From an uncultured virus (IMG/VR IMGVR_UViG_3300017734_000001) (Duplodnaviria > Heunggongvirae > Uroviricota > Caudoviricetes > Crassvirales): DNA of 20,000 bases. Of the stretch, positions 2,339 to 19,588 are shown in pieces. Below the pieces are notes generated by a model that made no database searches, had not been told where the DNA came from, and worked only from the letters and a program-made list of their open reading frames with translations. Positions within the stretch are counted from its first letter, which is position 1. The number at the start of each line of letters is the position of its first letter. The stretch lies in the IMG/VR virus record IMGVR_UViG_3300017734_000001. One strand, given 5' to 3'. Made by a program: the position numbers and the translations under genes.

Positions 2339-5300
2339 ATGCCTGAAATTAAAAATGTTTTTTCGGCAGGTAAAATGAATAAAGACCTGGACGAAAGATT
2401 AATTCCCAATGGCCAGTATCGAGATGCTTTGAATATAAAGATATCTAGTTCTGAGGGTGCGGACGTAGGTGCAATTGAAAATATATTAGGTAACACAGCT
2501 ATTTTTAATAGATCTTATAATGAGGTTACTAACTCATACACTCAATGGGGTTTAAACGACTCTGACACAAACTACTATGGTTTTGATAACTGTAAAACAG
2601 TAGGTGTTATAAGATACGATAGAAATGAAAAAATATATTGGCTTCTAAGTGGTAGCAATCAAGATGGTATACTAGAGTTTGATCAAACAACTAAAGTTGT
2701 ATCTCCTGTTGTTATAGATAAAAACAACGTTTTAAAATTTTCATCAAATACTCTTATTACAGGTATAAATATAATCGATGGCTTGTTGTTTTTTACTGAT
2801 GACTTAAATGAGCCAAAATGTATCAACATAGAAAGATTCAAAACTGCAGCAGCAGCCTCAGGAGACACTTCTCACACTGAAATTTACGGTAGAGATTTTA
2901 TAGAATCAGATGTAACCGTAATAAAAAAATCACCTATTACAGCCCCCACTTTGGAGATGTACAGAACAAAGCAGCTTGACGATAATGGCAATGTTACTAA
3001 TGTAGATACAGGTTGGTATGGAGCTTTAGGTAGCAATGTAGATGGTGAACCAACACCATTTGATCCAGGTACTGCTGTTACTATGTATTGGAATCAACCT
3101 TATCCTTTTTATAATGTTGGTGATACTTTAGTTTTAACGGCTTCAAACGGTGAAGATGATGAAGATCATATAGCTAGAGTTAAAGTTTTTGAAGTACCAA
3201 CAGGTAATACTCAAAACTTTGCTAAAGTAAACGTGTTGTCTATTAACACAGCACCAGCAACGAGTACATTTTGGGAGGTAACTTTAGAACAAACTCCACC
3301 CATGTTTGAGTTTAAGTTTGCTAGGTTTGCGTATAGATATATATACAATGATAATCAAGTTTCTTGTTTTTCTCCTTTTTCTGAGCCAGCATTTTTACCT
3401 GACGAAAAAGCTTTTGAATATAACCCAGAGCAAGGTTACAATGTGTTAATGAAAAACACGGTTAGAAATTTAAAAGTAAAAAACTTCGCGTCAAGTGGGA
3501 CAGTTCCATCCGATGTAGAAAAAATAGATATATTATATAAAGATTCTTCAAACCAAAATGTTTATGTTGTAGATACAATTGAAAAAGACTCTTCTGGTAA
3601 CTTTGCTAATCAGTATAGTATAAAATCTGAAATAATAAGCAAGGTTATAGAGTCTAATCAAATACTAAGACCGTTTGATAATGTACCAAGAAAAGCAAAA
3701 TCTCAAGAAATAATTGCCAATAGGCTAGTTTATGCTAATTATTTACAGAACTTTGATATAAAAAATGCAAACGGTGACATTGTAAAACCTAAAGTATCTA
3801 TAAACATTGACAATTACCCAACTTGGAATATTACTAATGAATCAGCTGGTAAATCAATAAAAACTTTAAGAACTTATCAAATTGGCGTTGCTTATAGAGA
3901 TGAACATGGTAGAGAAACACCAGTGTTTTCATCAGAAACAAGTTCTACTGTATTAGGTAAAACATCAGCAAACTTAAATAATAGAATATCTGCGGTAATA
4001 GAATCAGATCCTCCAGAAGGTTTTACTCATTTTAAGTTTTTTGTTAAAGAAAATTCAAACGAGTACTATAATTTATCAATGGATAGATTTTACGTTGAGT
4101 CAGATGATAATGTTTGGATATCTTTTCCATCTTCAGAAAGAAATAAAATAAAAGAAGATGACTTTATTATATTAAAAAAACAACACGATAGCAACAACTT
4201 TGTTGATGAAGAAGCTAGATACAAAATTATAGCTTTAGAAAATGAAGCTCCAGACACAATAAAAACAAAAAATGTAAACAAAGCTAAAATACAAGGTTCG
4301 GGTAATAATAACACCTTTGTATCTGACGGTCAGCCAGTTGAAACTGCTTTAACTTTAAAAATACTAAATCAAGCTTGGGTTGACTCTGGCGCTGATTCTA
4401 GAGACAACGCTTTGTTAGGTGAACCACAGCTTTGTTGTAAAATATTTACAGAAACAAATACAACACCTGTTTTTTATGATATAGAAAGTATACAAAAAGT
4501 TGGATCTGGTAACGATGCTCATTACAAGATTACTTTAAATAAACCACTATCTGGTATGGCTTTTGCTACAAGTAATGGTCAAGAAGCTGTAGGTTTAGGT
4601 ATAAATATATTTCAAAAAGAAATACAAAATAAACCAGAGTTTGCTGGTAGATTTTTTGCAAAAATATATAGTGATAAAGCTTTAGTTGACAGAATAACAT
4701 CGGTAAACGAAAAAGAAGGTTATGCTATAGCTTCTACTCGCACTCTTGGTAAAATGACTAGATTTGGAGATAATGATGATAACTGGAAATCTGGCGATAG
4801 AGGTTGGCATATAGATAATTCACAGCCTCGTTATCATACAGCTGTTCAAGGGGGATTGTTGCCACATAATAGTAATCTTCCTGGAGAAACGCTTAACGTT
4901 GGTGCGAAACGAGGTAGAGGGACTAGAGTGGGCTCAAAATACATAGATATATGTTATTTTAAATGGGGACCTGGTAGTGGTAGCGCGGCAAGAAACGCAT
5001 GGGACGGTTATTGGTGGGGCTTTGAAAATAAAGTTCCAGACGCAGCTGATACAGCTAATTTTTTACAGTCACCTGGACAAAAGATAAGATGGACTGATGA
5101 TCCAGATGGCACTATATATGAAATAGTCGATTATGCTAGAGTTCATTGTGTTACTTATAAAGGCAGCAAAAAAGGAAAGTTCGCTTCATCGAGATTAATA
5201 AGATTTACAATTCAACTAGATAAACCTCTAACTTGGTCACCAGATGACTCTTTACAGTTAACAGAAGTAGGTGGAAGTACTACTACTAATTTAGAGTTTT

Positions 5301-6580
5301 TAAGAATAGTAGATGAAGACTCTGGAACGTACACATCAAAAAACCCTGCTATTTTTGAAACTGAGCCCGATGAAAATGTTGACATTGATATATACTATGA
5401 AGCTAGTGATAATATACCAATCGCTCAACACGGAACTGAAGCGTTGCCATCTACTCACGATTTAGATTGGTTCAACTGCTATTCGTTTAACAATGGTGTA
5501 GAGTCTGACAGAATAAGAGATGATTTTAACGCTGTAAGAATAGGTAAAGGTGTAAAAGTATCTGCAACACTAGATGAGCCATACCAAGAAGAAAGAAGAG
5601 GATCAGGTTTAATATTTTCTCAAATATTCAACTCTTTAACAGGCACAAACAAACTTAATCAGTTTATACAAGCTCAACCTATAACTAAAGACTTAAATCC
5701 AGCAAATGGATCAATACAAAAACTTCACGCTAGAGACACAGATTTAGTTGTAATGTGTGAAGATAAAGTTTTAAAGATTTTAGCTCAGAAAGATGCCTTA
5801 TTTAACGCAGACGGATCTGCTAACGTTACATCTAACGCGGCTGTTTTAGGTCAAGCGATACCTTTTGTTGGTGAATATGGTATATCTAAAAACCCAGAGT
5901 CGTATGCTTATTATGGTTTTAGATCTTACTTCACAGATAAAAATAGAGGTGTTGTTTTAAGGCTATCAAGAGATGGTTTAGAAGAAATATCTTCAAACGG
6001 CATGAGCGATTATTTTTCAGATAAACTTGCTTCAGAAAACACAATGATTGGCAACTACGACGAAGACTCTGGATGCTACAATGTTAGTTTTTCTGATGAA
6101 ACAGTTTCTTTTGAAGAAACAGTTAGAGGTTGGCCAACTAGAAAATCTTTTGTAGCTGAAGCTGGTGTATCTTTAAATAACATATATTACACATTTAAAG
6201 ATGGTGTCATATGGTCACATGACAATCAAACAAGAAATAACTTTTATGGTACTCAATATAAATCAACAGTAAAGCTAGTGTTTAACGAGTCACCATCAAA
6301 AATTAAAAACTTTAAAACAATATTTTACGAAGGAGACTCTGGTTGGACTTGTCCAAAAATATCTACAGATCAACAAGACGGTAGCGTTCCAGGCTTTTCT
6401 AATAAAGAAGGTATATATTATAACTTTATAAAAGGCATTGAAAACACATGGGATAATAACTTTCAAGCTGGTACTCTAGATACTAAAGAGTTTTCAACGC
6501 AAGGTATAGATATACTTGGATCAATAACTGGCACAACTAAGAGTGACTTTATTTTAACAATAGAAGAAGACGGAAATTAA
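2339..6580 (+). CDS. Tail stabilization / muzzle (nozzle) protein (P22 gp10 / crAss muzzle-like)
   Basis: 1413 aa, beta-rich. The N-terminus GKMNKDLDERLIPNGQYRDALNI and the C-terminal EYGISKNPES...YFTDKNRGVVLRLSRDGLEEIS..GMSDYF blocks are characteristic of this family as I recall it. Confidence 0.72.
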   Translation: MPEIKNVFSAGKMNKDLDERLIPNGQYRDALNIKISSSEGADVGAIENILGNTAIFNRSYNEVTNSYTQWGLNDSDTNYYGFDNCKTVGVIRYDRNEKIYWLLSGSNQDGILEFDQTTKVVSPVVIDKNNVLKFSSNTLITGINIIDGLLFFTDDLNEPKCINIERFKTAAAASGDTSHTEIYGRDFIESDVTVIKKSPITAPTLEMYRTKQLDDNGNVTNVDTGWYGALGSNVDGEPTPFDPGTAVTMYWNQPYPFYNVGDTLVLTASNGEDDEDHIARVKVFEVPTGNTQNFAKVNVLSINTAPATSTFWEVTLEQTPPMFEFKFARFAYRYIYNDNQVSCFSPFSEPAFLPDEKAFEYNPEQGYNVLMKNTVRNLKVKNFASSGTVPSDVEKIDILYKDSSNQNVYVVDTIEKDSSGNFANQYSIKSEIISKVIESNQILRPFDNVPRKAKSQEIIANRLVYANYLQNFDIKNANGDIVKPKVSINIDNYPTWNITNESAGKSIKTLRTYQIGVAYRDEHGRETPVFSSETSSTVLGKTSANLNNRISAVIESDPPEGFTHFKFFVKENSNEYYNLSMDRFYVESDDNVWISFPSSERNKIKEDDFIILKKQHDSNNFVDEEARYKIIALENEAPDTIKTKNVNKAKIQGSGNNNTFVSDGQPVETALTLKILNQAWVDSGADSRDNALLGEPQLCCKIFTETNTTPVFYDIESIQKVGSGNDAHYKITLNKPLSGMAFATSNGQEAVGLGINIFQKEIQNKPEFAGRFFAKIYSDKALVDRITSVNEKEGYAIASTRTLGKMTRFGDNDDNWKSGDRGWHIDNSQPRYHTAVQGGLLPHNSNLPGETLNVGAKRGRGTRVGSKYIDICYFKWGPGSGSAARNAWDGYWWGFENKVPDAADTANFLQSPGQKIRWTDDPDGTIYEIVDYARVHCVTYKGSKKGKFASSRLIRFTIQLDKPLTWSPDDSLQLTEVGGSTTTNLEFLRIVDEDSGTYTSKNPAIFETEPDENVDIDIYYEASDNIPIAQHGTEALPSTHDLDWFNCYSFNNGVESDRIRDDFNAVRIGKGVKVSATLDEPYQEERRGSGLIFSQIFNSLTGTNKLNQFIQAQPITKDLNPANGSIQKLHARDTDLVVMCEDKVLKILAQKDALFNADGSANVTSNAAVLGQAIPFVGEYGISKNPESYAYYGFRSYFTDKNRGVVLRLSRDGLEEISSNGMSDYFSDKLASENTMIGNYDEDSGCYNVSFSDETVSFEETVRGWPTRKSFVAEAGVSLNNIYYTFKDGVIWSHDNQTRNNFYGTQYKSTVKLVFNESPSKIKNFKTIFYEGDSGWTCPKISTDQQDGSVPGFSNKEGIYYNFIKGIENTWDNNFQAGTLDTKEFSTQGIDILGSITGTTKSDFILTIEEDGN

Positions 6581-6581
6581 T

Positions 6582-9557
6582 ATGGCACTAATAAATTGTA
6601 GTATAAATTCAGCTTCGTTAACTAAAACAGGCGGTCAAGCTATAGGAAGTGATAATGCGACTTTAACAATAACACCAGCTACAGGTTATGTTGTAAATGC
6701 TGCAGATTTTACTGTTTCTAATGTTTCGTTTTCATCAAACGGTAATAGTTTAACGTTTCAACATGGTCAAAACGGAGTTGTTTTACCCACTGGTGTAACA
6801 AGTGTTACTTTAATAAACACTGGAACTGGTGGCGGTGTTGGAAACACTATCGCGGTTGCTGTAGATTTAACTAATAGTTTTGTCATGCCTTCGTCAGATA
6901 CTACGCTTATTGTAGATATCGATGGATCTGCAACTTTACAAGGTTTTACAGTTCAAGGTACTTTTGAGCAAATAGGTAGCGGTTTATCTGTAGCCAACAC
7001 AACTACAGGCAACTGGGGCCCTGTTTCTGGTCAATTTAATTCTTCATCTACAGTTTTTACCCGCACTATATCAGCTGCAAGTGGTAAGTATTTTCCAACT
7101 GCACCAACTTGTGAAATAGCTATAGGTGATAGTTCTAGATACACCATAAGTAGCTCAGATGCAACTGACAGTGACAACAATATAACAGGTAGAGCTTTTA
7201 CAGTTTCTTACAATTTTCCAAATCAAAACGTAACTGGTGATAAAATAAAAATTACTGGTACAGCTATAGATATACCTTCAACTACAACAGAAATAACAGC
7301 TTATAGTATATCTACTAACAAAATACCAAATTCTGGAGAAACTAGATTGTATAGGGTGTATGGAACACCTGGCGCTACTTTTAGCGTTGCTGTTGTTGAT
7401 TCTAACAATAGTAGTGTTGCAGGAATATCAAATATAACACTAGACAGCACTGGTACTTATGATTATTATATAACTTTTCCAAGTATATCTTCAGGCAGCG
7501 AAACTTATACTATAACAATATCTGGAGACCTGTCTAGTACATTTGGCACGTCAAGTGGCCAACCTACATCAGTTAATATAGTTCAACAATCAAACGTTAT
7601 ATTAACTTTAGGGTTAACATGCTCAGATTCTACAGTAACTGTACCTGCAAATCAAAGCATAAATCTACCTATAGATGAGGTTGACTTTTCTACATCTTAT
7701 ACTAATGAACAATACACTTTCTACTTTACAGTAACACGAACGGTTGCTTTGTATTTAAAAACTATACCTACATCTGCTTTTAACAATCAAAGTCAAACTA
7801 GTGGTATAAATTTTGATGTACAGTCTATAACAATAACTAACAACAACACAACTAGCGTAACACTTGCTGTGCTTGTTAATTTAAACTCCACAGAAGACAC
7901 AAATTTAACTAGTACGCTTAATTTAGATACGTATATAAACAACGTGCCTACTGGATCGCCTTTCACGTTTAATGTTAACCAAGGAGATCCTATAACTTTA
8001 AACTTACAGTCGAGATCTAGCGCTAGTGATCCTGAAGGTGATGGGCTTGCGTTTATAATATCAGGTTTACCAACAAATGGTAAACTTTTTACAGATGCAA
8101 ATAGAACAGATGAAATATTGTCTAATGAGTTGCCAGCTACATTATCTGGTAATACTGTTTATTATGAACATGATAATACCAACACATCTTCAGACACTTT
8201 TACATTTAAAATATCTGATGGTAATTCTACAACAGCAAATATAACAGCTACAGCAAATGTTAATTTAAACCAAGCTCCTACAGCTAGCGGTTTTACTTTT
8301 TCTTTATTAAAAGGAGCATCAAAAGAATTAAACTTAGCAACACTTTCAAGCCCTTCAGATCCAGACGGTGACACTTTAAGTTATAAAATAACAGGTTTAC
8401 CTTCTGCGGGATCAGATGCTAGCGGTCAGCTATTTACAGATTCAGCTTTACAAAACCAAATAACAAGCACACCAACAACACTAAGCAGTTCAACTATATA
8501 CTACAAACACGATAATAGTAATGATTTAACTGACTCTTTTACTTTTAGAGTTAGCGACGGATCTACTGAAACATCTGATTTAACAGCATCGGCAACTATA
8601 GGCGTTGCTCCTGGAGCTGCAATTTCAACATCAGGTAACTCTGGTATTTTCTTAATAGCAGTAACGCTAGGGACTGCTGCTGGAACTTTTAAAGTTCATT
8701 GTGATTCTTTTGATGTTTTTGATAGATTTCAAATATTGTTTGATACAAATGGTAATTCTAATAACATAGCTGACATGGAAGTTGTTGCAGATTCGCTTTA
8801 TGTTGGTGATAACGATTTTGGGAGTAATGATATTCCAAGTAACGGCCAAACGACAGGTTTAAGTGAATACACATACGTTGGATCAGGAGGAAATGCTCCG
8901 GTAGCTGACTTTAACGGGAGTACATCAGCTGCCGATAAGTGGAATAGAACCGGAAACGCTAATCAAACTATAACTATAACAGATGATATAGTTTCTATTG
9001 CTTCTGCTGTAAATAGAAGTAATTTTCCTGCTGACACAAGCGAGTTAGCGCCTTCAAGAGGGTCAAACTCAACAACAATAAAACAAGTTAATGTTCAAAC
9101 TGGTAGAGTTGAATCTACAACTAGTAACAATTACAGTCTTATTACGGGTGGCGCTTTAAACAATGGTAACGTTTGTCTTTATTATACTAAGTCTGCTACT
9201 ACTAACACAGTAGCATATATAAAAATATCTAGTCACCCTACAGAGGGTACAGGTTGGAATATTTTACACACTAGCTTCAATGCTAACTTTGGAACTGCTT
9301 ATGTTCAAACAAATAATGGTTGTGGTGCAACTGCATATCATACTACTTTTTTAGCTTATCCACAGGATAATACATGGGCTAACGGTAAAATAGTGTATTT
9401 AGATCCAGAAGAAACTCAAGTTTTGGTAGGAAATGGTAATACATATAAATTTCACACATATGTAAATGATCCAGACGACATAAGTAGTTATCAAGGTGTT
9501 ACTGCTACTATAAGCAACACCGGTGTTATTAGTTCTAAGTTTACGTGTACAGCATAA
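6582..9557 (+). CDS. Tail fibre / virion adhesin with Ig-like and tandem cadherin-like domains
   Basis: 991 aa, very rich in T/S/G/N with beta-strand patterns. It has two ~110-aa repeats with the pattern N.xP...SDP(E/D)GD.L...I.GLP..G.L...YY.HD....D.FTF.(I/V)SDG, and sits in the tail module. Confidence 0.65.
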   Translation: MALINCSINSASLTKTGGQAIGSDNATLTITPATGYVVNAADFTVSNVSFSSNGNSLTFQHGQNGVVLPTGVTSVTLINTGTGGGVGNTIAVAVDLTNSFVMPSSDTTLIVDIDGSATLQGFTVQGTFEQIGSGLSVANTTTGNWGPVSGQFNSSSTVFTRTISAASGKYFPTAPTCEIAIGDSSRYTISSSDATDSDNNITGRAFTVSYNFPNQNVTGDKIKITGTAIDIPSTTTEITAYSISTNKIPNSGETRLYRVYGTPGATFSVAVVDSNNSSVAGISNITLDSTGTYDYYITFPSISSGSETYTITISGDLSSTFGTSSGQPTSVNIVQQSNVILTLGLTCSDSTVTVPANQSINLPIDEVDFSTSYTNEQYTFYFTVTRTVALYLKTIPTSAFNNQSQTSGINFDVQSITITNNNTTSVTLAVLVNLNSTEDTNLTSTLNLDTYINNVPTGSPFTFNVNQGDPITLNLQSRSSASDPEGDGLAFIISGLPTNGKLFTDANRTDEILSNELPATLSGNTVYYEHDNTNTSSDTFTFKISDGNSTTANITATANVNLNQAPTASGFTFSLLKGASKELNLATLSSPSDPDGDTLSYKITGLPSAGSDASGQLFTDSALQNQITSTPTTLSSSTIYYKHDNSNDLTDSFTFRVSDGSTETSDLTASATIGVAPGAAISTSGNSGIFLIAVTLGTAAGTFKVHCDSFDVFDRFQILFDTNGNSNNIADMEVVADSLYVGDNDFGSNDIPSNGQTTGLSEYTYVGSGGNAPVADFNGSTSAADKWNRTGNANQTITITDDIVSIASAVNRSNFPADTSELAPSRGSNSTTIKQVNVQTGRVESTTSNNYSLITGGALNNGNVCLYYTKSATTNTVAYIKISSHPTEGTGWNILHTSFNANFGTAYVQTNNGCGATAYHTTFLAYPQDNTWANGKIVYLDPEETQVLVGNGNTYKFHTYVNDPDDISSYQGVTATISNTGVISSKFTCTA
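7938..8600 (+). repeat. Two tandem cadherin-like / bacterial Ig-like repeats (about 7938-8267 and 8268-8600)
   Basis: NNVPTGSPFTF...SDPEGDGLAFIISGLP..GKLFTD...YYEHDN...DTFTFKISDG aligns with NQAPTASGFTF...SDPDGDTLSYKITGLP...GQLFTD...YYKHDN...DSFTFRVSDG. Confidence 0.85.
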
Positions 9558-12145: not shown

Positions 12146-15100
12146 ATGCTAGAAAAACTATACAATGTTTTGTATGATAAAAAATTATTCACACAAGACT
12201 TTGATAAATTTAAACAAGCTTGGAGTAACGAAGAATATAAGAAAAAAGTATACGACGTTGTAAACTCTAAGAAACTTTTCACGCAAGATTATGATGTTTT
12301 TGTAAACGCATATAGCGAGGGAAAGCAACAGGGCGATGTTGCAACGGATGCAGCTGCAGAGCCCGCAGAAGATTTGGCATCCACATCGGCAATTACTTCA
12401 TCGGACTTATCTTTACCAATACCTCAAAGTGAAGGGCCTGCTGATCCTGAAGCATACACTACAGATTTAGGATTAACTTACGGCGATCAAAGAACATCTC
12501 AAGAACAAATAGACGACTTTATGAATAATATGTACCAAGCTTTGTCAGCTACAGGTACATATGAATTTTTAAAAGAAAAAGATTTAGAAGAAAGATACTA
12601 CTACGCTGGTAAACTTATATCAAACCCTACAGGTTCACCTAAAGACATTAAATTATCTTATTACAATTACTTCAAAGACATAAAGATAAAAGGTGTAAAA
12701 GATCCTAAAGCTATACTAGAACCTTTGTTTTTAGATAAAGATCAAATAAAAGAAGATTATTTTAAAATTAAAAACCTTAAAAACGATTTAAATATAAAAG
12801 ACTTTTATGATCAAGGCGGAACAGAAGATGTGTTAATTAAAAACGCTGATGATGCTGTAGATGAATTGATTCACGAAAGTGATTACATGAACAAAGAGTT
12901 TTTACCTTACTTTTTTAAAAAATACGAAGAAGATTTTTACAATAAACAAATAGAAACAATAGAGTCAATGGAAGTAGATTTTATCGGTCAAGATGAACTA
13001 GATAAAATCGAAGCTGAAATGGAGAACTATCAACTAGAGATGCTAAAACAAGAGCTAGCTTCAGATGTTGGTTATAAAGATTTAGTTAGTAAAGTAACGA
13101 GTGTTGTTTCAAATGATTTAGGTATAGATATAAAAGCTTTAAATAAAACTAAAGTAATACCTAATTGGGCTGAAGGCTCTGATTTTTTAGAAGGTATATA
13201 CAGGTTTACTAAGCAATGGGCTAGCGGTGAAGCCGGTGAGAAAATGGCTAATATATCTAAAGAAAATAAAGGTATAGATAACTTTTTAAAAGCTTACCAA
13301 AGCGGAGAATACACGGAGCAAGAATTAGCTGAGATAGCTAAAGAAAATTTAACAGATGCAGACTTAACGCTTTTATATCCATCTAAGTCTGTAGCACTTA
13401 GTAGAGCTCAGTGGATTGGCGCTGATAATTACGAAGAACTGATAGATAAGGCTAGGGCAGGTATAAAAGATCCTGTCTCTTACTTGAAGAAAAAGAAAAA
13501 ATTTCTAAATAAGCAGTTTATTAATAGCATGCAAGACAGCGAAGAGCTTTCTAAAGTGTTATCCATAATGGACAATACTGAGTTTTTTGATGAAGATGGT
13601 GTTACTATTGATGATTTTCAAAGAATGGCAGGTGAACAGCTACCTCAAATGGCTCAAGCTATTCTAACTTTAGGTTACGGTACTTATATGCAGGAAGCTG
13701 GTGGTATATACGTAGAGTCAATGTATAAAATAGCGGAGGCTAAATATGGACCATTAGCTTTAGGTATGGCTAGTAAAGAACAAAAAGAACAAATGTTCTT
13801 AGAGATAATGGAAGCTGGAGAAGATAATCCAGATGCAGCTATTGAAGGTGGTGTTATAAACGCTGGTTTAGATTTTGGTTCATCAATTTTTGTAGTAACA
13901 AAGGCTGGTAAATTTATACCTAAACAAGCCTGGAGATCTTTGCTTAGAGGTGAGTTTAAAAAAGCCTTAAAAAAAGCTGGAGGTAAAGACTTGCTAGAAG
14001 ATGCTTTAAAAATATCTATAGCAGAAAGTATTACAGAGGGTTCTCAAGAGACAGTTTCTATGCTTAAAGTAGGTAAAAGCACAGGTTACTACAATTTTGA
14101 TCCAAAAAGAATAAAAGAAGGTGCAGCTCAAGGTTTTGCTAGTTCATTACTGTTTTTTGGTTTAGGTAAGAGTAGATCTGCTTATAATTATTTAACAGAT
14201 GGCATTGGTTTACAATACTCTAGATTTAAAAATAAAGATCACATATTAAATTTAATTAAACTAGAAAAACAAAAAATAAAACAAGATCTTAAAAATGGCA
14301 ATATAACAAAACAAGAAGCCATTGATAAAGTTAAGAAAGCCAACGCTAAAAGAGATGTTATAGTTGATAACGATGTTTACAATGTTTCTGAAAATAACAG
14401 ACAACAAGCATTTGACGCTACAGAAGCTGTTGTTGATGAACAAGTTAAACTTGACACAGCGCTAGACAACCTAAAGCAAGCAAAAAACAACCCTTCTGCT
14501 ACAGATCAAGATATTGAGTTTAGAGAGGCAGAGGTTAATAATCAAAAAGAAAGACTTGCAGATGCTAAATTTGAACTTAATAAAGCAAAGCAGAAAGACA
14601 ATGCTAGTAAAGATATAAGCAGAGCTTCTAATAGAATTAATCAAACAAAAGAAGGTGAATTAGCTGATAAACAACTTATTACATTTAGAACTAGAAAAGA
14701 AGCAGCTGCATTTGTAAAAAGATACAAAATAAAAGTAGACGCAAATATTGAAGGGTTACTAAATGGTGGGGCCTCAGGAGCAGCTTTAGCGCCTGGACAG
14801 ACTATAAGATACAAAGGTGAAGATATAGTGCCAGCTTTTGTTGTGAAACAAACAATAAATGAGCAAATCGATAATTCTACTAGACAAAACGATTTTAGTT
14901 TACGATCTGCTTTTGCGGCTAGTCACGAGGTTAATCACTTTATATTAGATACCGTTGACCCAAAAGTGTTAGATGGTGTTGTATCTAAGTTAAAAAACGA
15001 CATGCGTAATTCTGGAGACATCGAAACTAATGCGGTTTTAGAGATTGTTGAAACCATGATGGTGGAATATGTAAAAAAAGATCCAAAAATATCTAGAGAC

Positions 15101-18100
15101 TATTTAAACCAAGAGTTTTTAGCTGGTTTAGGTGATGTGCTACAAACTTTTAAAGCTTTAAAACCTAAATCTCCATTTCAAAGAATGTTTATAGACTTTG
15201 GTGAATCTATTTCAAAAATTATAAACGCTAACACAGGATTAAATGTAAACTACAACGATGCTAATTCTGTGCTAGGCTTTCTTAAAAATTATAACAAATT
15301 TTTAGGTAAAAATGCACCTATAGTAATAAAAAGTGGTACTGATATTGATGGCGAGAAAAAGTCTAGAGCTCAAATAAGCTTAGAGCAGCAGAAGAAGCTT
15401 TTAGTAGATGAGAATAAGATTTTAGCACCTATGATGCGTACTAACGCTTCTGCCGCTAAAAAAATACAGGAAAACGTAGATAAGATAAAAGCTATAAGTG
15501 CTCAAATAATAGAAGAAAAAGAGCTAGCAGAAAACTTAAAGTTTGCTCCTGGTTTATCTAAAAAAGCAAAAGATATTACAAGAAAAAATGAGCTCAATTG
15601 GAGTGAGCTTATGGATCCAGCTACTAAAGAATCTGACAAAACAGCTTTAAAAAATAAAATATACGAAGACAATCAAGGTACTATTATAAACATTATAAGA
15701 AAAACATTTAATCCAAATATAGAAAGCAATCTAACAGCTGAAGATTACGCACAAGCAATGCAGCTTGAAGCCTTGAAGATGATCGATTCTTACGAAAAGA
15801 CATATAACAAAAAGAAAGCAGAAGGTACATTAGCACCGTGGAACTTTTATTTAAAAGATAACTTACCTAAGAGACAAGGAGCTATACTTAAAAAACTTAT
15901 AGGTGATAAGTCTATGATGTTTATGGGTGATGCTACAGCTAGTATAGGTAGCGCTCAACTTGGTTATACACCTGATTATGGTAATTTTAGTAATGAAGAA
16001 TACATCGAACAACAAGGTGTAATAGTAGATGAAGTTTTAGCTTTCACACCAGAAATTAAAGCAGAAATAAGAGAGGCTGCTAAAAAAGTTTTATCAACTT
16101 TTAAAGGTGATTCAGGTGTTAATCTTAAAAAACAACTTGGCGATGCTCTTGAAGTAATGCTAAAGCCTTATATTCAAACAAATGTATTGGGTAGTAAGGT
16201 AAAGAAAAACTACAAAGGGCAAACGTATAGAGAGTTTATGCAGCAAAACTGGGAAGATATATATTCTATAATAGGTTTTGACGTTATAAATACCAGACTT
16301 ACATCTAGAACTAAACAAGAGAAAGCGGCTGGCATACCAAATCCTTTTATATTTAAAATAACTAAAGACGGTAAGCAAGTTAGAGATAGTAGATTAGAAG
16401 ACCTAACTGGTAAAGGTAGAGGTAAAGCTAAAAAGAGAATAGTTAATCAAGAAGAGTTTATAAAATTCTTTTTTGGTGAATTAGTAAATCCTTCTACACA
16501 AGGTACTAGAAAAGATACTTTAGCAGAAATAATAGCTAGAGAAGCTGGCTTAGATCAAATAAGCTGGATGCTAGAAAACGATACTGAGTTTTTAGATTTA
16601 TTTAAACAAAAACAAGACTTGTTAGGTACTCTTATAGATAATGATTACATCGAGAGTATACAAAGACAAATTGACAGGTTTGATGGTTCAAGAAGACCAG
16701 GGTCAAGAGCACAGTTAGTCATAGACAGCGCTAACTACAACGGTTTAAGCTCTAGCGCTGCTATGAACGTATTAGAAGACATTAAAAACAACGAGATAAT
16801 AGATTACAAGTCTCAACCATTAAATCGATTTAGAAATGATGTTTTAGACATGATAAGAGTTGGTAATGCTTACGCTGCTATAGATTTATACCATACCCCA
16901 ACAGACGAAGACATTAAGGTTGATGGTAAGTATAAACTTAACAATGAAGGCTTACAACTATCAAATGTTAAATCGGATGGTGATGTTAGTGTAAGAGTTA
17001 AAATTAGCTCAGCTGGAAACTTATTTGTGCCTAAAGAGTTTTCTTGGAATGGTGGATTTAGCATAATGAGATCTTTAGATATAGAGTTAAAAGGTTATGA
17101 TGTTGCTATGTCTAGAATACCAGACGAAGATGGTAGTTATTTTGCTAAATGGTTAGTTGATAATAACATACTAACAAAAAAGCAAGTAGAAAAAGATGCT
17201 AGCGCTAGTGGTATAAGAGAAACTTTAGTGTCTGAAGGTTATACTTCAATAACATATCCTAAAGCTGATGGTAGCTTTGGCTATATAATACTAAACAACG
17301 AAGCTTTTGACTTGTCTTTTGATAATAAAATAAACAATCAAATAAAAAGCTTAATGAGTGATTCAGGCTCAAGAGCTCAGTTGGTTGGTATGAAGGGAAA
17401 AATGAGTGAGATCATTGAGCAGAAATCAAAAGGTAAAATAAAAGCCAATGAAGTATTATCTAACGCTGCTGCAAGAAACATGCGTAGAAAAGCTGGACTT
17501 AACTTTAGCAATCTATATGTTCCTTATCAACTAGAAGACTTTGTAGGTTTAACATATGCTTTCACGCCAGAAGGTAAAAAAGGTGAAGCCGCTCAAGAGT
17601 TTATAAAAGAAAGAGTGATGAATCCTTATTTTGAAGCTAAAGAGCAGTATAGAGTTTTTCAGCAAAACTTAAACGCTAACTTTAATAGATTACTTAGTGA
17701 TGTTGGTATTACAGCTAAAACACTTAAAGAAACAGTAGACATACTAGGTAAACCGTTTACTAAAGATCAAATAGTTAGAGCTTATTTGTTTTCTACACAA
17801 GGAGCTGATATAGATCCTTCTATATTAAGCCCAAAAGAAATACAAGCTTCATTAGACTATATAAAGTCAGATGAAAAGCTTTTGATGCTTGCAGCAATGC
17901 TACCAACAATACTAGATAACAAAGGCGGTTGGGTACGGTATAGAGGTGAAATGCACGAAACTTTATCTATTGATATAGTTAAGTTTGCAGAAGGTAAAAG
18001 AAAAATATTTTTTGAAAGATTTAAAGACAATATAGATATAATATTTGATCCTCAAATAAAAGAAAAGTTAAGAGGTTTGCTAGGTGAAACATACGTTAAA

Positions 18101-19588
18101 GAACTAGAAAGCTCCCTTAAAAGGATGTACACAGGTAGAAATGAAAGCCAAAACGCTAGTCCAATGGTTAACGAGATTATGACTTGGTTTAATGGCTCTG
18201 TTAATACTATAATGTTCTTTAACATGAGATCTGCTAGCTTACAGTTGCTTTCTACAATTAACTTTGTTAACTGGACCGATAACAACCCCATAGCTGCTGG
18301 TGCTGCCTTTTCTAATCAAAAGCAGTTTTGGTCTGACGTGTCTATGCTTATGAATACAAGTTACATAAAAGACAGGATGGGTAACATGAAGTTTGATGTT
18401 GAAGCTGATATTCTTGTTGAAATGGGCAAAACATCAAAAACATATAACGATCTTTTAGCTAAACTTTTTAAGCTAGGTTATGCACCTACAAGACTTGCTG
18501 ACTCGTTTGCTATAACTTTTGGTGGTGCTACTTTTTACAGAAATAGATTCAACACTTACAAAAAACAAGGTATGTCAGACGCTAATGCTAATGCTAAAGC
18601 TTTGGTAGACTTTGAAAGAACGGCTGAGGTTAGCCAGCAGTCTAGTGATCCATCTAAAATAGCAAGTGCGCAGATTGGTAGTTACGGTAGATTCCTTTTT
18701 GCTTTTGCTAACACTCCATTTCAATATGCTAGATTATCAAAGAAAGCTGCTTTAGATATAATAAATAACAGAGGTGATTTAAAAACCAATATATCTAAAC
18801 TAACGTACTACACTTTTGTTCAGTCTATAATATTTTCAGCCTTACAAAACGCCGTGTCTTTAAAAGATTTAATTGATTTGGGAGATGAAGAAGATGATAG
18901 AATGGACGAAACAACTAGAGGGGCTTTATATTTTGGAGTTAATTCTTTGATAGATGGTCAATTGAAAAACTTTGGTGCTAGAGTTGGTATTTCATCTATA
19001 CTAGCAAAAAATGCTTTGTTGCTGCAAATACAAAGAGATCTTTACAGAGAGTTTGGTAAAGATGCTATTGGTGGACCTTTTGATTTAGTTAAAGCTGCTA
19101 GACCTGAAATTGGTCAAATGGTTCTTTTGGCTAGTTCTGTTTCTCCGCCAATGTCAACCAAGACTAGAAAATTATTTGCTATAGACAGAATGGATATCTA
19201 TAATCAAATACGAGAGAAAAAAGAGTTTTACGACTTAACAGATACATGGTATGTATATCCACAAGATCCAACGTGGCAAACATACGCTACATATTTAAAC
19301 GTAGCACTTAATATACCAGCTGATAGATTATTACAAAAATTAGAAAATATATCTTTCGCTATGTATGATGAGTTTGATTATGCCACAAGATTTGCGTTTT
19401 TAGCTGGTTGGAGCAAATGGAACTTACTACCAAAAGATGACTTTAACATACCTTATCCTGAGATGGAAAGTTTAAATTACTACGAAAGTAGACTTAGAAA
19501 AAAAATAAAAGAAAAATCTAAAAACACAGAGACTGATAAAGACTACGAGAAAAGAATGAGAGAAAAAAGACAAGAAAAAAGTAAGTAA
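12146..19588 (+). CDS. Giant multidomain virion cargo / ejection protein (polyvalent-protein-like): zincin HExxH, sigma-region-2-like and ART-like domains, helical C-terminal domain
   Basis: 2480-aa uninterrupted ORF. HEVNH at aa 927-931 with a distal E990; sigma-2-like segment at about aa 1168-1251; ART-like segment at about aa 1581-1717; SRAQ at aa 419, 1073, 1520 and 1742. No RNAP DxDxD motif seen. Confidence 0.65.
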   Translation: MLEKLYNVLYDKKLFTQDFDKFKQAWSNEEYKKKVYDVVNSKKLFTQDYDVFVNAYSEGKQQGDVATDAAAEPAEDLASTSAITSSDLSLPIPQSEGPADPEAYTTDLGLTYGDQRTSQEQIDDFMNNMYQALSATGTYEFLKEKDLEERYYYAGKLISNPTGSPKDIKLSYYNYFKDIKIKGVKDPKAILEPLFLDKDQIKEDYFKIKNLKNDLNIKDFYDQGGTEDVLIKNADDAVDELIHESDYMNKEFLPYFFKKYEEDFYNKQIETIESMEVDFIGQDELDKIEAEMENYQLEMLKQELASDVGYKDLVSKVTSVVSNDLGIDIKALNKTKVIPNWAEGSDFLEGIYRFTKQWASGEAGEKMANISKENKGIDNFLKAYQSGEYTEQELAEIAKENLTDADLTLLYPSKSVALSRAQWIGADNYEELIDKARAGIKDPVSYLKKKKKFLNKQFINSMQDSEELSKVLSIMDNTEFFDEDGVTIDDFQRMAGEQLPQMAQAILTLGYGTYMQEAGGIYVESMYKIAEAKYGPLALGMASKEQKEQMFLEIMEAGEDNPDAAIEGGVINAGLDFGSSIFVVTKAGKFIPKQAWRSLLRGEFKKALKKAGGKDLLEDALKISIAESITEGSQETVSMLKVGKSTGYYNFDPKRIKEGAAQGFASSLLFFGLGKSRSAYNYLTDGIGLQYSRFKNKDHILNLIKLEKQKIKQDLKNGNITKQEAIDKVKKANAKRDVIVDNDVYNVSENNRQQAFDATEAVVDEQVKLDTALDNLKQAKNNPSATDQDIEFREAEVNNQKERLADAKFELNKAKQKDNASKDISRASNRINQTKEGELADKQLITFRTRKEAAAFVKRYKIKVDANIEGLLNGGASGAALAPGQTIRYKGEDIVPAFVVKQTINEQIDNSTRQNDFSLRSAFAASHEVNHFILDTVDPKVLDGVVSKLKNDMRNSGDIETNAVLEIVETMMVEYVKKDPKISRDYLNQEFLAGLGDVLQTFKALKPKSPFQRMFIDFGESISKIINANTGLNVNYNDANSVLGFLKNYNKFLGKNAPIVIKSGTDIDGEKKSRAQISLEQQKKLLVDENKILAPMMRTNASAAKKIQENVDKIKAISAQIIEEKELAENLKFAPGLSKKAKDITRKNELNWSELMDPATKESDKTALKNKIYEDNQGTIINIIRKTFNPNIESNLTAEDYAQAMQLEALKMIDSYEKTYNKKKAEGTLAPWNFYLKDNLPKRQGAILKKLIGDKSMMFMGDATASIGSAQLGYTPDYGNFSNEEYIEQQGVIVDEVLAFTPEIKAEIREAAKKVLSTFKGDSGVNLKKQLGDALEVMLKPYIQTNVLGSKVKKNYKGQTYREFMQQNWEDIYSIIGFDVINTRLTSRTKQEKAAGIPNPFIFKITKDGKQVRDSRLEDLTGKGRGKAKKRIVNQEEFIKFFFGELVNPSTQGTRKDTLAEIIAREAGLDQISWMLENDTEFLDLFKQKQDLLGTLIDNDYIESIQRQIDRFDGSRRPGSRAQLVIDSANYNGLSSSAAMNVLEDIKNNEIIDYKSQPLNRFRNDVLDMIRVGNAYAAIDLYHTPTDEDIKVDGKYKLNNEGLQLSNVKSDGDVSVRVKISSAGNLFVPKEFSWNGGFSIMRSLDIELKGYDVAMSRIPDEDGSYFAKWLVDNNILTKKQVEKDASASGIRETLVSEGYTSITYPKADGSFGYIILNNEAFDLSFDNKINNQIKSLMSDSGSRAQLVGMKGKMSEIIEQKSKGKIKANEVLSNAAARNMRRKAGLNFSNLYVPYQLEDFVGLTYAFTPEGKKGEAAQEFIKERVMNPYFEAKEQYRVFQQNLNANFNRLLSDVGITAKTLKETVDILGKPFTKDQIVRAYLFSTQGADIDPSILSPKEIQASLDYIKSDEKLLMLAAMLPTILDNKGGWVRYRGEMHETLSIDIVKFAEGKRKIFFERFKDNIDIIFDPQIKEKLRGLLGETYVKELESSLKRMYTGRNESQNASPMVNEIMTWFNGSVNTIMFFNMRSASLQLLSTINFVNWTDNNPIAAGAAFSNQKQFWSDVSMLMNTSYIKDRMGNMKFDVEADILVEMGKTSKTYNDLLAKLFKLGYAPTRLADSFAITFGGATFYRNRFNTYKKQGMSDANANAKALVDFERTAEVSQQSSDPSKIASAQIGSYGRFLFAFANTPFQYARLSKKAALDIINNRGDLKTNISKLTYYTFVQSIIFSALQNAVSLKDLIDLGDEEDDRMDETTRGALYFGVNSLIDGQLKNFGARVGISSILAKNALLLQIQRDLYREFGKDAIGGPFDLVKAARPEIGQMVLLASSVSPPMSTKTRKLFAIDRMDIYNQIREKKEFYDLTDTWYVYPQDPTWQTYATYLNVALNIPADRLLQKLENISFAMYDEFDYATRFAFLAGWSKWNLLPKDDFNIPYPEMESLNYYESRLRKKIKEKSKNTETDKDYEKRMREKRQEKSK
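12155..12313 (+). repeat. Two 30-aa-period N-terminal repeats in the giant protein
   Basis: KLYNVLYDKKLFTQDFDKFKQAW (aa 4-26) versus KVYDVVNSKKLFTQDYDVFVNAY (aa 34-56), with an identical KKLFTQD core. Confidence 0.85.

Follow-up and report, generated by a model that had tools for sequence, protein, structure and literature searches.

Short peptides at the module boundaries of a giant, zincin-bearing crAss-type phage protein as candidate processing sites

The giant gene and its modules

The stretch of DNA analysed (the window; 20,000 nucleotides of an uncultured Crassvirales virus, IMG/VR record IMGVR_UViG_3300017734_000001) holds on its plus strand, at 12146..19588, a giant open reading frame of 2,480 aa (P0001), a modular "polyvalent" protein in a block of virion genes. 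A gene for a crAss-type tail muzzle protein of 1,413 aa (2339..6580, +; PF25729 crAss_MUZ_C, E 5.4e-10; phrog_14478, E 3e-137) sits 5.5 kb upstream, and it is only from the position after this gene that we infer packaging and ejection of P0001. The relatives of the terminase are phages of Flavobacterium, Cellulophaga and Tenacibaculum, the twelve listed records being ~60 kb each. Neither the whole of P0001 nor its pieces matched Pfam or PHROG, and tblastn against 50,697 phage records gave zero matches; 111 long homologues were nevertheless found.

The N-terminal region (aa 1-850; 12146..14695, +) has no conserved tag inside it and no strong hydrophobic helix (KD maximum 1.24); among the 112 proteins of the jackhmmer set, aa 1-418 recur in 6 (clade-specific) and aa 419-850 in 14. 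The zincin-like module that follows (aa 851-1072; 14696..15361, +) carries HEVNH at aa 927-931 (nt 14924-14938) and, as candidate for the third zinc ligand, an invariant Glu 990 (nt 15113-15115). Of the 112 homologues, 107 have HExxH (one copy in 106, two in 1) against an expectation of 0.011 per protein, and in alignment A1 the motif forms H, E and H columns together with E150, the downstream Glu standing in 22 of 22 rows; exceptions are P0011 and P0020 with HDxxH, and P0010 without such a motif. The AlphaFold (AF2) model of the module shows strands, then the HExxH helix, then the Glu helix (pLDDT 73-88), so that motif and order of secondary structure both bear out the embedded zincin region of the preliminary description. 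Pfam, PDB sequence search, Foldseek and VIA-align retrieved no zincin for it.

The S module (aa 1073-1519; 15362..16702, +) is widespread in the family (jackhmmer, 28/112 and 126/374 proteins) and terminates at QI[DNE]R. Its earlier description as sigma-like stands in part: aa 1140-1256 (nt 15563-15913) gave a middling VIA-align match to sigma domain 2 (8vjl_B, Z 9.1, rmsd 2.7, 97 aa), sigma entries making up 13 of 50 rows, and neither Pfam nor hhalign gave the sigma reading any support from sequence, such that a resemblance to sigma domain 2 is suggested tentatively. The A module (aa 1520-1741; 16703..17368, +) is clade-specific (6/112 proteins, jackhmmer). Its assignment as an ADP-ribosyltransferase-like (ART) region was not supported; the lead from the Atlas is weak (score 0.89; clusters with ART-PolyVal in 17-22% of members), and the candidate catalytic His of LYH is replaced by Phe in P0004 and P0005, i.e. 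in two of six homologues. The C-terminal helical module (aa 1742-2480; 17369..19585, +), on the other hand, is the hallmark of the family, found by jackhmmer in 110 of 112 homologues and matching 1,973 clusters (50% identity) at E ≤ 1e-3 and 1,358 at 1e-30. Modelled by AF2 with pLDDT 76.4 and pTM 0.76, this conserved segment of 739 aa has no Pfam family, no Foldseek match at E ≤ 1e-3 and a best VIA score of Z 6.0.

The modules are clearly shuffled among relatives, in which variable effectors appear (GH108 lysozyme, zeta-toxin-like kinase, LPD38); in L001, a close relative, the N-terminal part is divergent and the C module 100% identical.

The SRAQ copies

The tetrapeptide SRAQ occurs four times in P0001, at aa 419, 1073, 1520 and 1742 (nt 13400, 15362, 16703 and 17369), followed directly by W, I, L and L; a recount returned the positions of the preliminary description as well as its segment lengths of 447, 222 and 739 aa for the spans set by copies 2-4. 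The four codon sets are distinct (AGT AGA GCT CAG, TCT AGA GCT CAA, TCA AGA GCA CAG and TCA AGA GCT CAG), and the DNA flanking the two GSRAQLV copies is unrelated (29 of 72 positions identical), which places the conservation at the protein level, as had been proposed. Composition predicts 0.022 copies per P0001, an expectation indeed well below one, and no other 4-mer reaches three copies. In shuffled P0001 some 4-mer reached four copies in 8 of 500 shuffles and three in 315 of 500; by a best-p statistic over 560 shuffles three copies (score 5.7) were reached in 1.6-13.6% and four (score 8.0) in <0.2%. The count by itself is thus only moderately strong support for the three relevant copies, and the weight of the case lies on their conservation and placement. 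As also claimed beforehand, SRAQ is missing from other proteins, namely the other nine ORFs of the window and all ORFs ≥ 80 aa of the contig (29,223 bases), and likewise from the plus-strand ORFs of at least 100 aa that flank the giant gene in L001-L003.

Copy 1 (aa 419; 13400..13411, +), which the preliminary description had suspected of being incidental, is judged to be so, since it is strain-specific, sits in variable sequence flanked by the conserved LYP and DPxxYLK, and is missing even from P0002 (94% identical) as well as from P0003 (LSRVSG there) and L001-L003. Copy 2 (aa 1073; 15362..15373, +) lies at the seam between the zincin and S modules and reads SRAQ in P0002, P0003, P0004 and P0005, and SAAQ or SSAQ in P0006 and P0007. 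Copy 3 (aa 1520; 16703..16714, +) follows immediately on the QI[DNE]R end of the S module, and copy 4 (aa 1742; 17369..17380, +) precedes the C-terminal module, whose matches in distant proteins begin at residue 2-7 of the segment that this copy opens; both are retained in P0002 and P0004-P0007. In P0004-P0007, 43-47% identical to P0001 and varying in the linkers around SRAQ, all three seams are retained in P0004 and P0005 and two of three in P0006 and P0007.

Predicted structure at the seams

In the AF2 models, of which that of aa 841-1800 is mediocre overall (mean pLDDT 58.6), the sites at aa 1073, 1520 and 1742 fall within or border on stretches with pLDDT < 50, as anticipated from the linkers first noted there; better-predicted parts flank the first and third of these seams. 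Since the A module is low throughout, low pLDDT is unspecific at copy 3, as it is towards the A module at copy 4. Copy 2 comes after a pLDDT < 50 linker (fragment residues 206-231) and opens a helix (234-256), copy 3 lies within such a stretch (673-697), and copy 4, in the model of the C module, ends the disordered residues 1-35 and opens a helix (33-52). Domain shuffling among relatives and low-confidence AlphaFold linkers independently delimit the module boundaries at which the three retained copies sit. A predicted helix starts at every SRAQ, and the pattern S-x-x-Q is similar to a helix N-cap box; the conservation of the tag could therefore be partly structural.

Seam peptides across the family

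Alignment of the homologues, suggested in the preliminary description, revealed genome-specific short motifs that recur at equivalent junctions. Distant relatives mostly carry [IV]-K-F-S-K at their seams, with ASKDL, KASK and PLS[KR] as further forms; at the end of the S module they have VKFSK, IKRAK, IKLSS or VKMSES where P0001 has SRAQ, and SRAQ 1742 aligns with an [KQR]FSK or ASK seam. The seams of a single protein tend to match, as in P0045 (GKFSKG, VKFSKG and VKSSKT), P0075 (IKRAK and IKRSK), P0081 (IKLSS and MKLSQ), P0063 (IKYSK twice), P0009 (FSKS four times), P0037 (ASKDL five times) and P0049 (KASK five times), and P0011, though HDxxH, retains the matched pair VKMSES and VKFSES.

In 23 of 102 proteins a 4-mer of the C-seam window recurred at least twice elsewhere, compared with 4.8% of random windows, as it did in 24 of 111 independent 50%-identity representatives, compared with 6.6%; exact recurrence is limited to 22-23% of family members. 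When the S-end window was compared with the C-seam window of its own protein in 15 clade representatives, the score was 18.0, against 14.4 ± 0.8 for permuted pairings; none of 20,000 permutations reached the observed score, and the protein's own seam ranked first in 7 of 15. The seams within one protein are thus more alike than they are to the seams of other lineages. FSK occurs 2.57-fold above expectation (permuted tripeptides, 0.72-1.13). With positions in 201 proteins counted from HExxH, FSK and ASK together number ~5 per 50-aa bin on the upstream side, 55 at +100..+199 and 82 at +500..+649, which shows that the tags start at the C-terminal edge of the zincin. P0233, an intermediate homologue, mixes two dialects and thereby links them: it has TRFSL aligned with SRAQL of P0001, IRAQ at its C seam and no tag at the zincin/S seam. 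The equivalence of TRFS and SRAQ makes SRAQ the local dialect of a tag common to the family. The conserved SRAQ is best read as the clade version of a family seam peptide, roughly [S/I/V/T]-[R/K]-[A/F/L/M/Y]-[Q/S]-x.

Processing sites or uncut tags

On the best reading, which falls just short of an even chance, the seams are proteolytic processing sites, probably cut by the zincin of P0001 itself. Self-processing by the zincin has been proposed for such giant proteins in passages that name no sites (PMC5512222; bioRxiv 10.1101/2020.03.07.982082). It appears rather unlikely that the tag remains uncut and serves as a helix N-cap with hydrophobic staple, as a peptide docking to capsid, portal or chaperone, or as a signal for the order of unfolding and tail threading. 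The helices opening right after disordered stretches would fit such a role, and N4 virion RNAP, ArdC and TraC1 are described as travelling whole and unprocessed with their zincin domain (PMC5512222), so that the presence of a zincin does not imply cutting; a cargo protein of crAss001 is likewise described as a single chain spanning capsid and tail (PMC10172136). An N-cap, however, requires just S/T...E/Q and leaves unexplained why identical R and A, or K-F, stand at unrelated helices and change together between lineages; the commonest form, KFSK then S/T/N, misfits a capping box, and it would be unusual for a multivalent docking peptide to recur at each seam and still be restricted to the region downstream of the zincin.

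Unlikely, too, is processing by another protease, either a phage maturation protease encoded elsewhere in the genome, which would measure roughly 60 kb judging by its relatives, or a host enzyme after ejection, the embedded zincin being tasked otherwise (e.g. with host proteins, cell wall peptides or encapsidation). The matched seams of P0011 and the absence of the motif from P0010 speak for it, as does the coverage of ~37 kb of the genome, compared with relatives' contigs of 60-68 kb, and phages are well known to have maturation proteases that recognise short motifs in packaged internal proteins (T4 gp21, phiKZ). On the other hand, the flanks of the gene show no prohead-protease family and an M15 endolysin as the sole protease family detected, neither the contig's portal, major capsid and tail proteins nor the neighbouring virion proteins in L011, L006 and L007 contain the tag, the tags begin at the edge of the zincin and not upstream of it, and lineage-private changes are simpler with a partner encoded in cis. 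That the tags are boundary marks promoting recombination, as at the domain borders of polymorphic toxins, seems very improbable. Module shuffling and the L001 relative would agree with it, but the codons differ among copies in unrelated DNA, 12-21 bases should be too short for homologous exchange, and one tag per seam across lineages is predicted where one tag across seams within a lineage is seen. Chance recurrence in a long protein, to which the frequent three-copy 4-mers in shuffles and the incidental copy 1 would lend themselves, is barely credible and already contradicted by the three copies retained at aligned positions in the 43-47% identical homologues, by their match to independently defined borders and by parallel tags at the same seams throughout the family.

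Comparison with known systems

Polyproteins with a protease in cis and short seam motifs are experimentally proven for picornavirus 3C, potyvirus NIa and coronavirus Mpro, as are MARTX toxins, whose cysteine protease domain cuts the linkers between effectors. P0001 would work like them, as a chain of modules with one built-in protease and one short peptide repeated at its seams, co-drifting with the protease between lineages; these proteases are, however, of other classes and non-homologous, whereas P0001 is a dsDNA phage virion protein for which cutting is inferred. Among head-maturation proteases, encoded as separate genes, T4 gp21 cuts at L/I-x-E and phiKZ gp175 at S/A/G-x-E. The short motif-directed processing of ejection-destined proteins, here proposed, is similar, but their motifs occur also in capsid and scaffold proteins, and the P0001-type tag is confined to the giant protein within the DNA examined.

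Among the closest descriptions is that of the polyvalent proteins which carry a zincin-like MPTase in phages and conjugative elements (Iyer, Burroughs, Anand, de Souza, Aravind 2017; PMC5512222), likewise giant and multi-modular, set among virion genes, with embedded HExxH and downstream Glu and with variable effectors in relatives, though P0001 matches no Pfam polyvalent-protein family. In the main text of that paper "linker" and "sigma" do not occur, "cleavage site" appears nowhere but in the title of a reference, and the passages cited here name no seam motif. For the Crassvirales cargo/virion-RNAP block, packaging, ejection and cleavage of fused forms have been proposed (bioRxiv 10.1101/2020.03.07.982082; PMC10172136); the accounts include a zincin protein of phi14:2 beside the gp66 RNAP, a "polyprotein likely cleaved" (bioRxiv 10.1101/2020.03.07.982082), and gp45-gp50 as the cargo proteins of crAss001 (PMC10172136). 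P0001 resembles this block in its gene downstream of the muzzle gene, its size and its zincin motif; by contrast, jackhmmer with all six P0001 segments gave zero matches in GenBank gp078-gp082 of phi14:2, and the downstream DNA in L001 and L002 lacks both a giant RNAP gene and D[FY]DxD. In coliphage N4 virion RNAP, an ejected giant protein reported to be packaged unprocessed (PMC5512222), a C1 domain with HExxH precedes C2, which is large, helical and of unknown fold (PMC13434306). P0001 similarly has, beyond its zincin motif, a C-terminal domain that is large and mostly helical and has no structural relatives, and no sequence or fold match between the two was found with a fold library that runs to April 2026 and may exclude the N4 structure.

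A possible course of processing

Thermolysin-like zincins prefer a hydrophobic or small residue at P1'. From the family consensus our guess is that the scissile bond joins the basic residue to the A/F residue, and the alignment of SRAQ with TRFS and xKFS makes this cut at least as plausible as one after Gln. In this very large family of giant phage proteins, a seam peptide would mark each module boundary downstream of the embedded HExxH...E zincin. P0001, probably packed into a marine phage particle, would first be cut in cis at a site ~146 residues after HExxH, with later cuts at the remaining seams, in the capsid or after ejection; the cutting itself, its timing and the cutter are all putative. 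The predicted pieces would be aa 1-1072 (the N-terminal part with the zincin), 1073-1519, 1520-1741 and 1742-2480.

A recurring tetrapeptide in the giant protein

The giant open reading frame (12146-19588, plus strand) encodes P0001, a protein of 2,480 amino acids in which the tetrapeptide SRAQ stands at residues 419, 1073, 1520 and 1742, followed by Trp, Ile, Leu and Leu, respectively. The codons for Ser, Ala and Gln differ among the copies, exactly as the preliminary description had reported along with their positions and the hydrophobic residue that comes next; a repeat at the DNA level was considered and rejected, the DNA flanks of the two GSRAQLV copies being unrelated. The motif is absent from the other ORFs of the contig and from the plus-strand ORFs of at least 100 amino acids beside the gene in three related loci (L001-L003), in line with its reported confinement to this one protein. 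From composition, 0.022 copies are expected, and SRAQ is the sole 4-mer of P0001 with at least three copies. The claim of rarity holds in this respect, but for the three copies that matter the count alone is weaker than had been claimed: among 500 shuffles of P0001, 315 contained some 4-mer in three copies and 8 contained one in four. On a best-p scale three-copy SRAQ scored 5.7, where 13.6% of 560 shuffles reached 5 and 1.6% reached 6.

Conservation was followed in 111 long homologues obtained from a search of 5.8 billion proteins. The copy at residue 419 is missing in P0002, which is 94% identical to P0001, in P0003 (LSRVSG in its place) and in three IMG/VR relatives, and because it lies in addition within a variable patch, it is regarded as incidental, a possibility that had been allowed for from the beginning. 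The other three copies are retained in P0004 and P0005, while P0006 and P0007 keep two of them and show SAAQ or SSAQ as the third; these four homologues share 43-47% identity with P0001, and their linker flanks are variable. The SRAQ observation is real, and one of its four copies is incidental.

The patch itself (residues 410-445, nucleotides 13370-13480) is hypervariable, is flanked by the conserved motifs LYPxxS and DPxxYLK, and differs both in the 94% homologue and in IMG/VR relatives whose C-terminal module is 96-100% identical, differences that suggest mosaic exchange in the N-terminal part.

Gene neighbourhood

Of a contig of 29,223 bases, the window makes up the right-hand 20 kb, and all its long ORFs lie on the plus strand. 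Genes for terminase, portal, capsid and virion proteins were recognized 5' of the giant gene by family and sequence matches. The product of the muzzle gene (2339-6580, plus strand) contains PF25729 (E = 5.4e-10), the C-terminal domain of Crassvirus muzzle proteins; next comes a gene (6582-9557, plus strand) for a 991-residue protein with cadherin-like/Big_9 domains (Pfam), probably a fibre or adhesin. P0001, searched whole and as six pieces, matched no Pfam (pieces at E ≤ 5) or PHROG family. The crAss-type muzzle gene and the giant gene belong to one gene block, and this muzzle gene is the feature shared with the cargo block of Crassvirales; on the other hand, the giant DFDxD RNA polymerase adjacent to the cargo there has no counterpart in the near-identical IMG/VR contigs L001 and L002. 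No giant RNA polymerase gene was found 3' of the giant gene in these contigs, where an ORF of 406 residues comes next, then small ORFs and the gene of an M15 endolysin, and D[FY]DxD occurs in none of the plus-strand ORFs of at least 100 amino acids of L001-L003, the giant ORF included. Among the matches listed, the terminase shares 62% identity with its counterpart in an uncultured podovirus of 60.8 kb and 46% with those of Flavobacterium phages; phages of Cellulophaga, Tenacibaculum and Maribacter are matched as well, at less than 60% identity. These matches make Flavobacteriia likely hosts, and contigs of relatives measure 60-68 kb. As the genomes of the terminase relatives listed amount to just some 60 kb and the cargo gene is not followed by one for a giant RNA polymerase, the locus combines a crAss-related tail with a smaller type of phage.

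Related loci hold further genes around this block, such as a GroES-like co-chaperonin (phrog_13932; L012, 867-1472) encoded 5' of the terminase, and a thioredoxin-like protein together with the M15 peptidase endolysin (L001, 14026-14929) 3' of the giant gene. A tblastn search of P0001 against 50,697 phage records (threshold 1e-5) gave no match, and no cultured phage with a P0001-like protein was found. The closest GenBank genome (MW202828.1; L014, 741-12320) encodes at the syntenic place a protein of 3,859 amino acids with two HExxH motifs and Ala/Pro-rich repeats (four AAPA), annotated as 'reticulocyte binding/rhoptry protein'. A jackhmmer comparison of P0001 with this protein gave no match, and since similarity to P0001 is not detectable, the annotation is probably spurious.

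Module borders and predicted structure

Iterative searches with each inter-SRAQ segment identified these segments as independent modules. In jackhmmer searches of two sets of 112 and 374 proteins, the zincin module (residues 851-1072) was found in 44 and 159 proteins, the S module (1073-1519) in 28 and 126, the A module (1520-1741) in 6 and 7, and the C module (1742-2480) in 110 and 366, respectively. All modules, including the N-terminal part (residues 1-850), differ in their distribution among relatives, and many unrelated modules are encoded with virion and packaging genes, as looked for in polyvalent proteins. The borders coincide closely with the tags: in distant proteins the C-module match starts 2-7 residues into the SRAQ-initiated segment, and the S module closes with QI[DNE]R, which is conserved and lies a few residues ahead of the tag.

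An AlphaFold2 (AF2) model of residues 841-1800, built from a 22-row alignment (A1; mean pLDDT 58.6), has its SRAQ sites at fragment residues 233-236, 680-683 and 902-905, at the end of or inside stretches with pLDDT < 50 (206-231, 673-697 and 878-915). The expectation that the sites lie in disordered linkers was thereby supported for all three, as linkers of low confidence, with the reservation that low pLDDT around the A module is not specific, because this module is poorly predicted throughout. In the model of residues 1709-2480 (35 rows; pLDDT 76.4, pTM 0.76) the first 35 residues are disordered, and SRAQ (34-37) begins the first confident helix. Membrane-spanning segments in P0001 were rejected, the maximum hydropathy being 1.24. 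Several of 120 shorter proteins begin at or near a tag (M-QFSK..., M-ASK...); these come mostly from short contigs, in which truncated calls and true splits are indistinguishable.

Seam peptides across the family

Distant homologues, similar to P0001 by BLAST in the C module only, nevertheless have short peptides of different sequence at these seams, so that the recurrence of a genome-specific motif at equivalent junctions, proposed as a check by alignment, is indeed seen. In P0045 the sequence GKFSKG follows the zincin, VKFSKG follows the S module and VKSSKT precedes the C module; the seams of P0075 read IKRAK and IKRSK, those of P0081 IKLSS and MKLSQ, those of P0011 VKMSES and VKFSES, and P0063 has IKYSK twice. 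FSKS occurs four times in P0009, ASKDL five times in P0037, KASK five times in P0049 and PLS[KR] three times in P0008, and FSK is present in 58 of 147 distinct C-seam windows. The intermediate relative P0233 presents ...QIDRHEGYQPISTRFSLII... opposite ...QIDRFDGSRRPGSRAQLVI... of P0001, and its C seam reads IRAQ; SRAQ is therefore the equivalent of x-K/R-F-S, a local dialect of the pattern [S/I/V/T]-[R/K]-[A/F/L/M/Y]-[Q/S].

In 23 of 102 homologues, a 4-mer from the window ahead of the C module recurs at least twice more in the same chain (random windows of these proteins, 4.8%), and among independent representatives of 50%-identity clusters a recurring C-seam 4-mer was found in 24 of 111, compared with 6.6%; five of these 24 (QQAI, LIDE, IGNS, VQQA and AEAK) look like noise. 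The majority of family members show no exact 4-mer recurrence at the C seam, their tags being either absent or too degenerate for this crude test. A 4-mer is shared by the post-S and pre-C windows in 9 of 26 proteins, and by 6% of pairs taken across proteins. When the set was reduced to 15 clade representatives, the two seams of one protein had a mean best 6-mer similarity of 18.0, a value that none of 20,000 permuted pairings reached (14.4 ± 0.8), and the own seam ranks first in seven of the 15. In 122 representatives FSK is enriched 2.57-fold over the composition expectation, with FKS, SFK, KSF and SKF at 0.72-1.13. What emerges is the same short peptide at successive seams, covarying between lineages, the feature sought in a polyprotein with a cis-acting protease.

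The zincin candidate

The motif HEVNH (residues 927-931) lies on a predicted helix (84-94 of the AF2 fragment) preceded by strands within residues 38-60 (pLDDT 73-88). HExxH occurs exactly once in 106 of the 112 homologues and twice in a further one, for an expected 0.011 per protein; the five exceptions are HExxxH in P0099 (residue 929) and P0105 (residue 946), HDxxH in P0011 (residue ≈ 1010) and P0020 (residue ≈ 995), and one protein with none of these. Both His residues and the Glu of the motif are nearly invariant in A1, and Glu 990, 59 residues past HExxH and on a predicted helix (144-165), is invariant in all 22 rows, which makes it a candidate for the third ligand of a putative zinc ion. 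The order of secondary-structure elements, strands, HExxH helix and later Glu helix, is that of the zincin-like peptidases in the accessible text of PMC5512222. A known zincin was retrieved neither by Pfam nor by PDB sequence and profile searches, Foldseek or VIA-align, the lists for the 960-residue model barely testing this part. Membership of the zincins (gluzincin type) rests on motif, ligand and secondary-structure order, and peptidase activity is predicted; the embedded HExxH zincin of the preliminary description is upheld at this level.

In 201 proteins [FA]SK remains at background upstream of HExxH (103 occurrences in twenty 50-residue bins), peaks past it with 55 occurrences at +100 to +199 and 82 at +500 to +649, and stays high until the C module, while the first conserved tag of P0001 follows HExxH by 146 residues. 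The architecture is therefore that of an N-terminal part, the zincin, a tag, modules each followed by a tag, and the C module.

The S, A and C modules

The label 'sigma-like' for the S module is tentative. Residues 1140-1256 superimpose on domain 2 of pro-sigma-K (8vjl_B) with Z 9.1 and rmsd 2.7 over 97 residues (VIA-align), a middling match, as Z below about 13 for helical bundles may, by the program's own note, reflect a mere common arrangement; 13 of 50 rows listed come from sigma-factor entries, all on one stretch. Against this, no Sigma70 match was obtained by Pfam in the pieces of P0001 or in 30 homologues, a PDB profile search with A1 retrieved no sigma factor, and hhalign of A1 with E. 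coli RpoE gave a probability of 0.07. The S module is tentatively described as sigma-like from its predicted fold. The label 'ART-like' for the A module was not sustained: there is no ART match in Pfam, and the candidate catalytic His (LYH) is Phe in two of six full-length homologues, the triad of ART-PolyVal being H-Y-D according to the accessible text of PMC5512222. The sole lead to ART-PolyVal is a weak one, from Atlas clusters with 17-22% carriers (score 0.89); a lead to LPD23, weak as well, comes from an Atlas cluster with 18% carriers.

The helical C module, 739 residues long, marks out a very large unannotated family: 1,973 clusters (50% identity) are reached at E ≤ 1e-3, and no Pfam family covers it. 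It is nearly always the C-terminus of proteins of 2,000-3,600 residues and has numerous invariant polar positions, such as those in Q-Q-S-S and F-x-N-T-P-x-Q-Y of the consensus. The libraries searched contained no structural relative, the best VIA-align hit being a helical hairpin (Z 6.0); Foldseek against the PDB gave no match at E ≤ 1e-3 for either AF2 model, and PDB sequence searches with P0001 and the A1 profile returned nothing meaningful. None of the curated polyvalent domains (MPTase-PolyVal, LPD families, ART-PolyVal) was detected in P0001 or its six pieces (Pfam, E ≤ 5). In the 30 homologues scanned, Pfam recognized only GH108, zeta-toxin/AAA kinases, a weak Reprolysin_5 and LPD38, the last in P0112 alone.

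A separate observation concerns the module preceding C in the distant homologues P0074 (residues 1960-2390) and P0025 (1700-2130), where the HAD-phosphatase motifs FDFDDTL ... LTAR ... FADD enclose a P-loop kinase of the zeta-toxin/AAA_33 type (Pfam). The layout resembles that of T4 polynucleotide kinase-phosphatase, and this HAD-kinase module may be an RNA-repair effector.

Proposed processing of the seams

Within one chain every seam bears the same kind of short peptide, which differs from lineage to lineage and first appears at the border of a predicted protease; a polyprotein whose putative cleavage sites co-evolve would show this pattern. The earlier interpretation of SRAQ as a cleavage signal is plausible and has been sharpened, cleavage itself being putative. 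That the seams undergo processing of some kind is considered moderately probable; that the embedded zincin would be the agent falls somewhat short of an even chance. The cut would fall between the basic residue and F, L, M, Y or A, that is, at the Arg-Ala bond of SRAQ. Thermolysin-like zincins prefer hydrophobic P1' residues, and this preference together with the family consensus suggests the bond, as a guess. A complex prediction for the zincin module (fragment residues 1-205) and a seam peptide (660-700) gave a score of 0.00 against a mark of 0.32, which is no evidence either way.

Counting against the zincin is P0011, which retains matched seams with HDxxH in place of HExxH. Cutting of the seams by another protease is judged unlikely, the tags beginning as they do just past the zincin. 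The tags may instead be an uncut structural or docking element, and here S-x-x-Q at a helix start, which looks like an N-cap, counts against processing, as does the mixing of dialects in P0233. Moreover, the N4 virion RNA polymerase, ArdC and TraC1 possess a zincin-like domain yet stay whole (PMC5512222, accessible text). With the similarity of a protein's own seams on the other side, this reading is given a minor though appreciable share. A recombination mark could also leave like peptides at module borders, but with synonymous codons that differ and unrelated DNA flanks it is very improbable. Chance recurrence, to which the shuffles of P0001 taken singly lend some colour, is hardly credible beside the permuted seam pairings.

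The processing reading can be extended to a more specific picture. Marine crAss-related phages of about 60 kb, devoid of the giant virion RNA polymerase that classical crAss-like phages have, would deliver a self-dismantling polyprotein in its place; after ejection, the zincin would cut every private seam tag at the bond that joins its basic residue to the hydrophobic or small one, and among the pieces freed would be a sigma-like factor, the widespread S module, redirecting host RNA polymerase to early phage genes. In well over a thousand protein clusters, the protease would evolve in step with its seam code. As a whole, this picture is a long shot.

Relation to known systems and implications

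Self-processing of polyvalent proteins by zincins and cleavage of fused crAss polyproteins have been proposed (PMC5512222; bioRxiv 10.1101/2020.03.07.982082; PMC10172136; PMC13434306). That giant polyvalent proteins of phages are cut by a zinc protease of their own is an idea that dates back to 2017, with the sites unnamed; for crAss-like phages the accessible text of these sources explicitly leaves it open. The same portions name no seam motif, and the supplements of PMC5512222 could hold relevant alignments; among the papers that full-text searches on polyvalent proteins, crAss-like zincins and phage cleavage sites listed, no title or abstract opening describes one. Six segments of P0001 compared by jackhmmer (four rounds) with the cargo block of phi14:2 (GenBank gp078-gp082) gave no match. 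In the phi14:2 record (L016, 10360-12141) two HExxH motifs occur in the 593-residue gp081 and not in the 1,797-residue gp078 beside the RNA polymerase; such comparisons need care, since GenBank and the RNA polymerase paper number the genes differently.

For a family that comprises at least 1,358 clusters (50% identity), the present analysis provides residue-level candidate cleavage sites and a family consensus, together with the simple prediction of four products from P0001, so that the hypothesis can be tested with one expression construct or in metaproteomes of marine viruses. Were the seams cut, the borders of hundreds of unannotated effector domains could be taken straight from the sequence, and the timing of the cuts would bear on the passage of very large proteins through the phage tail.
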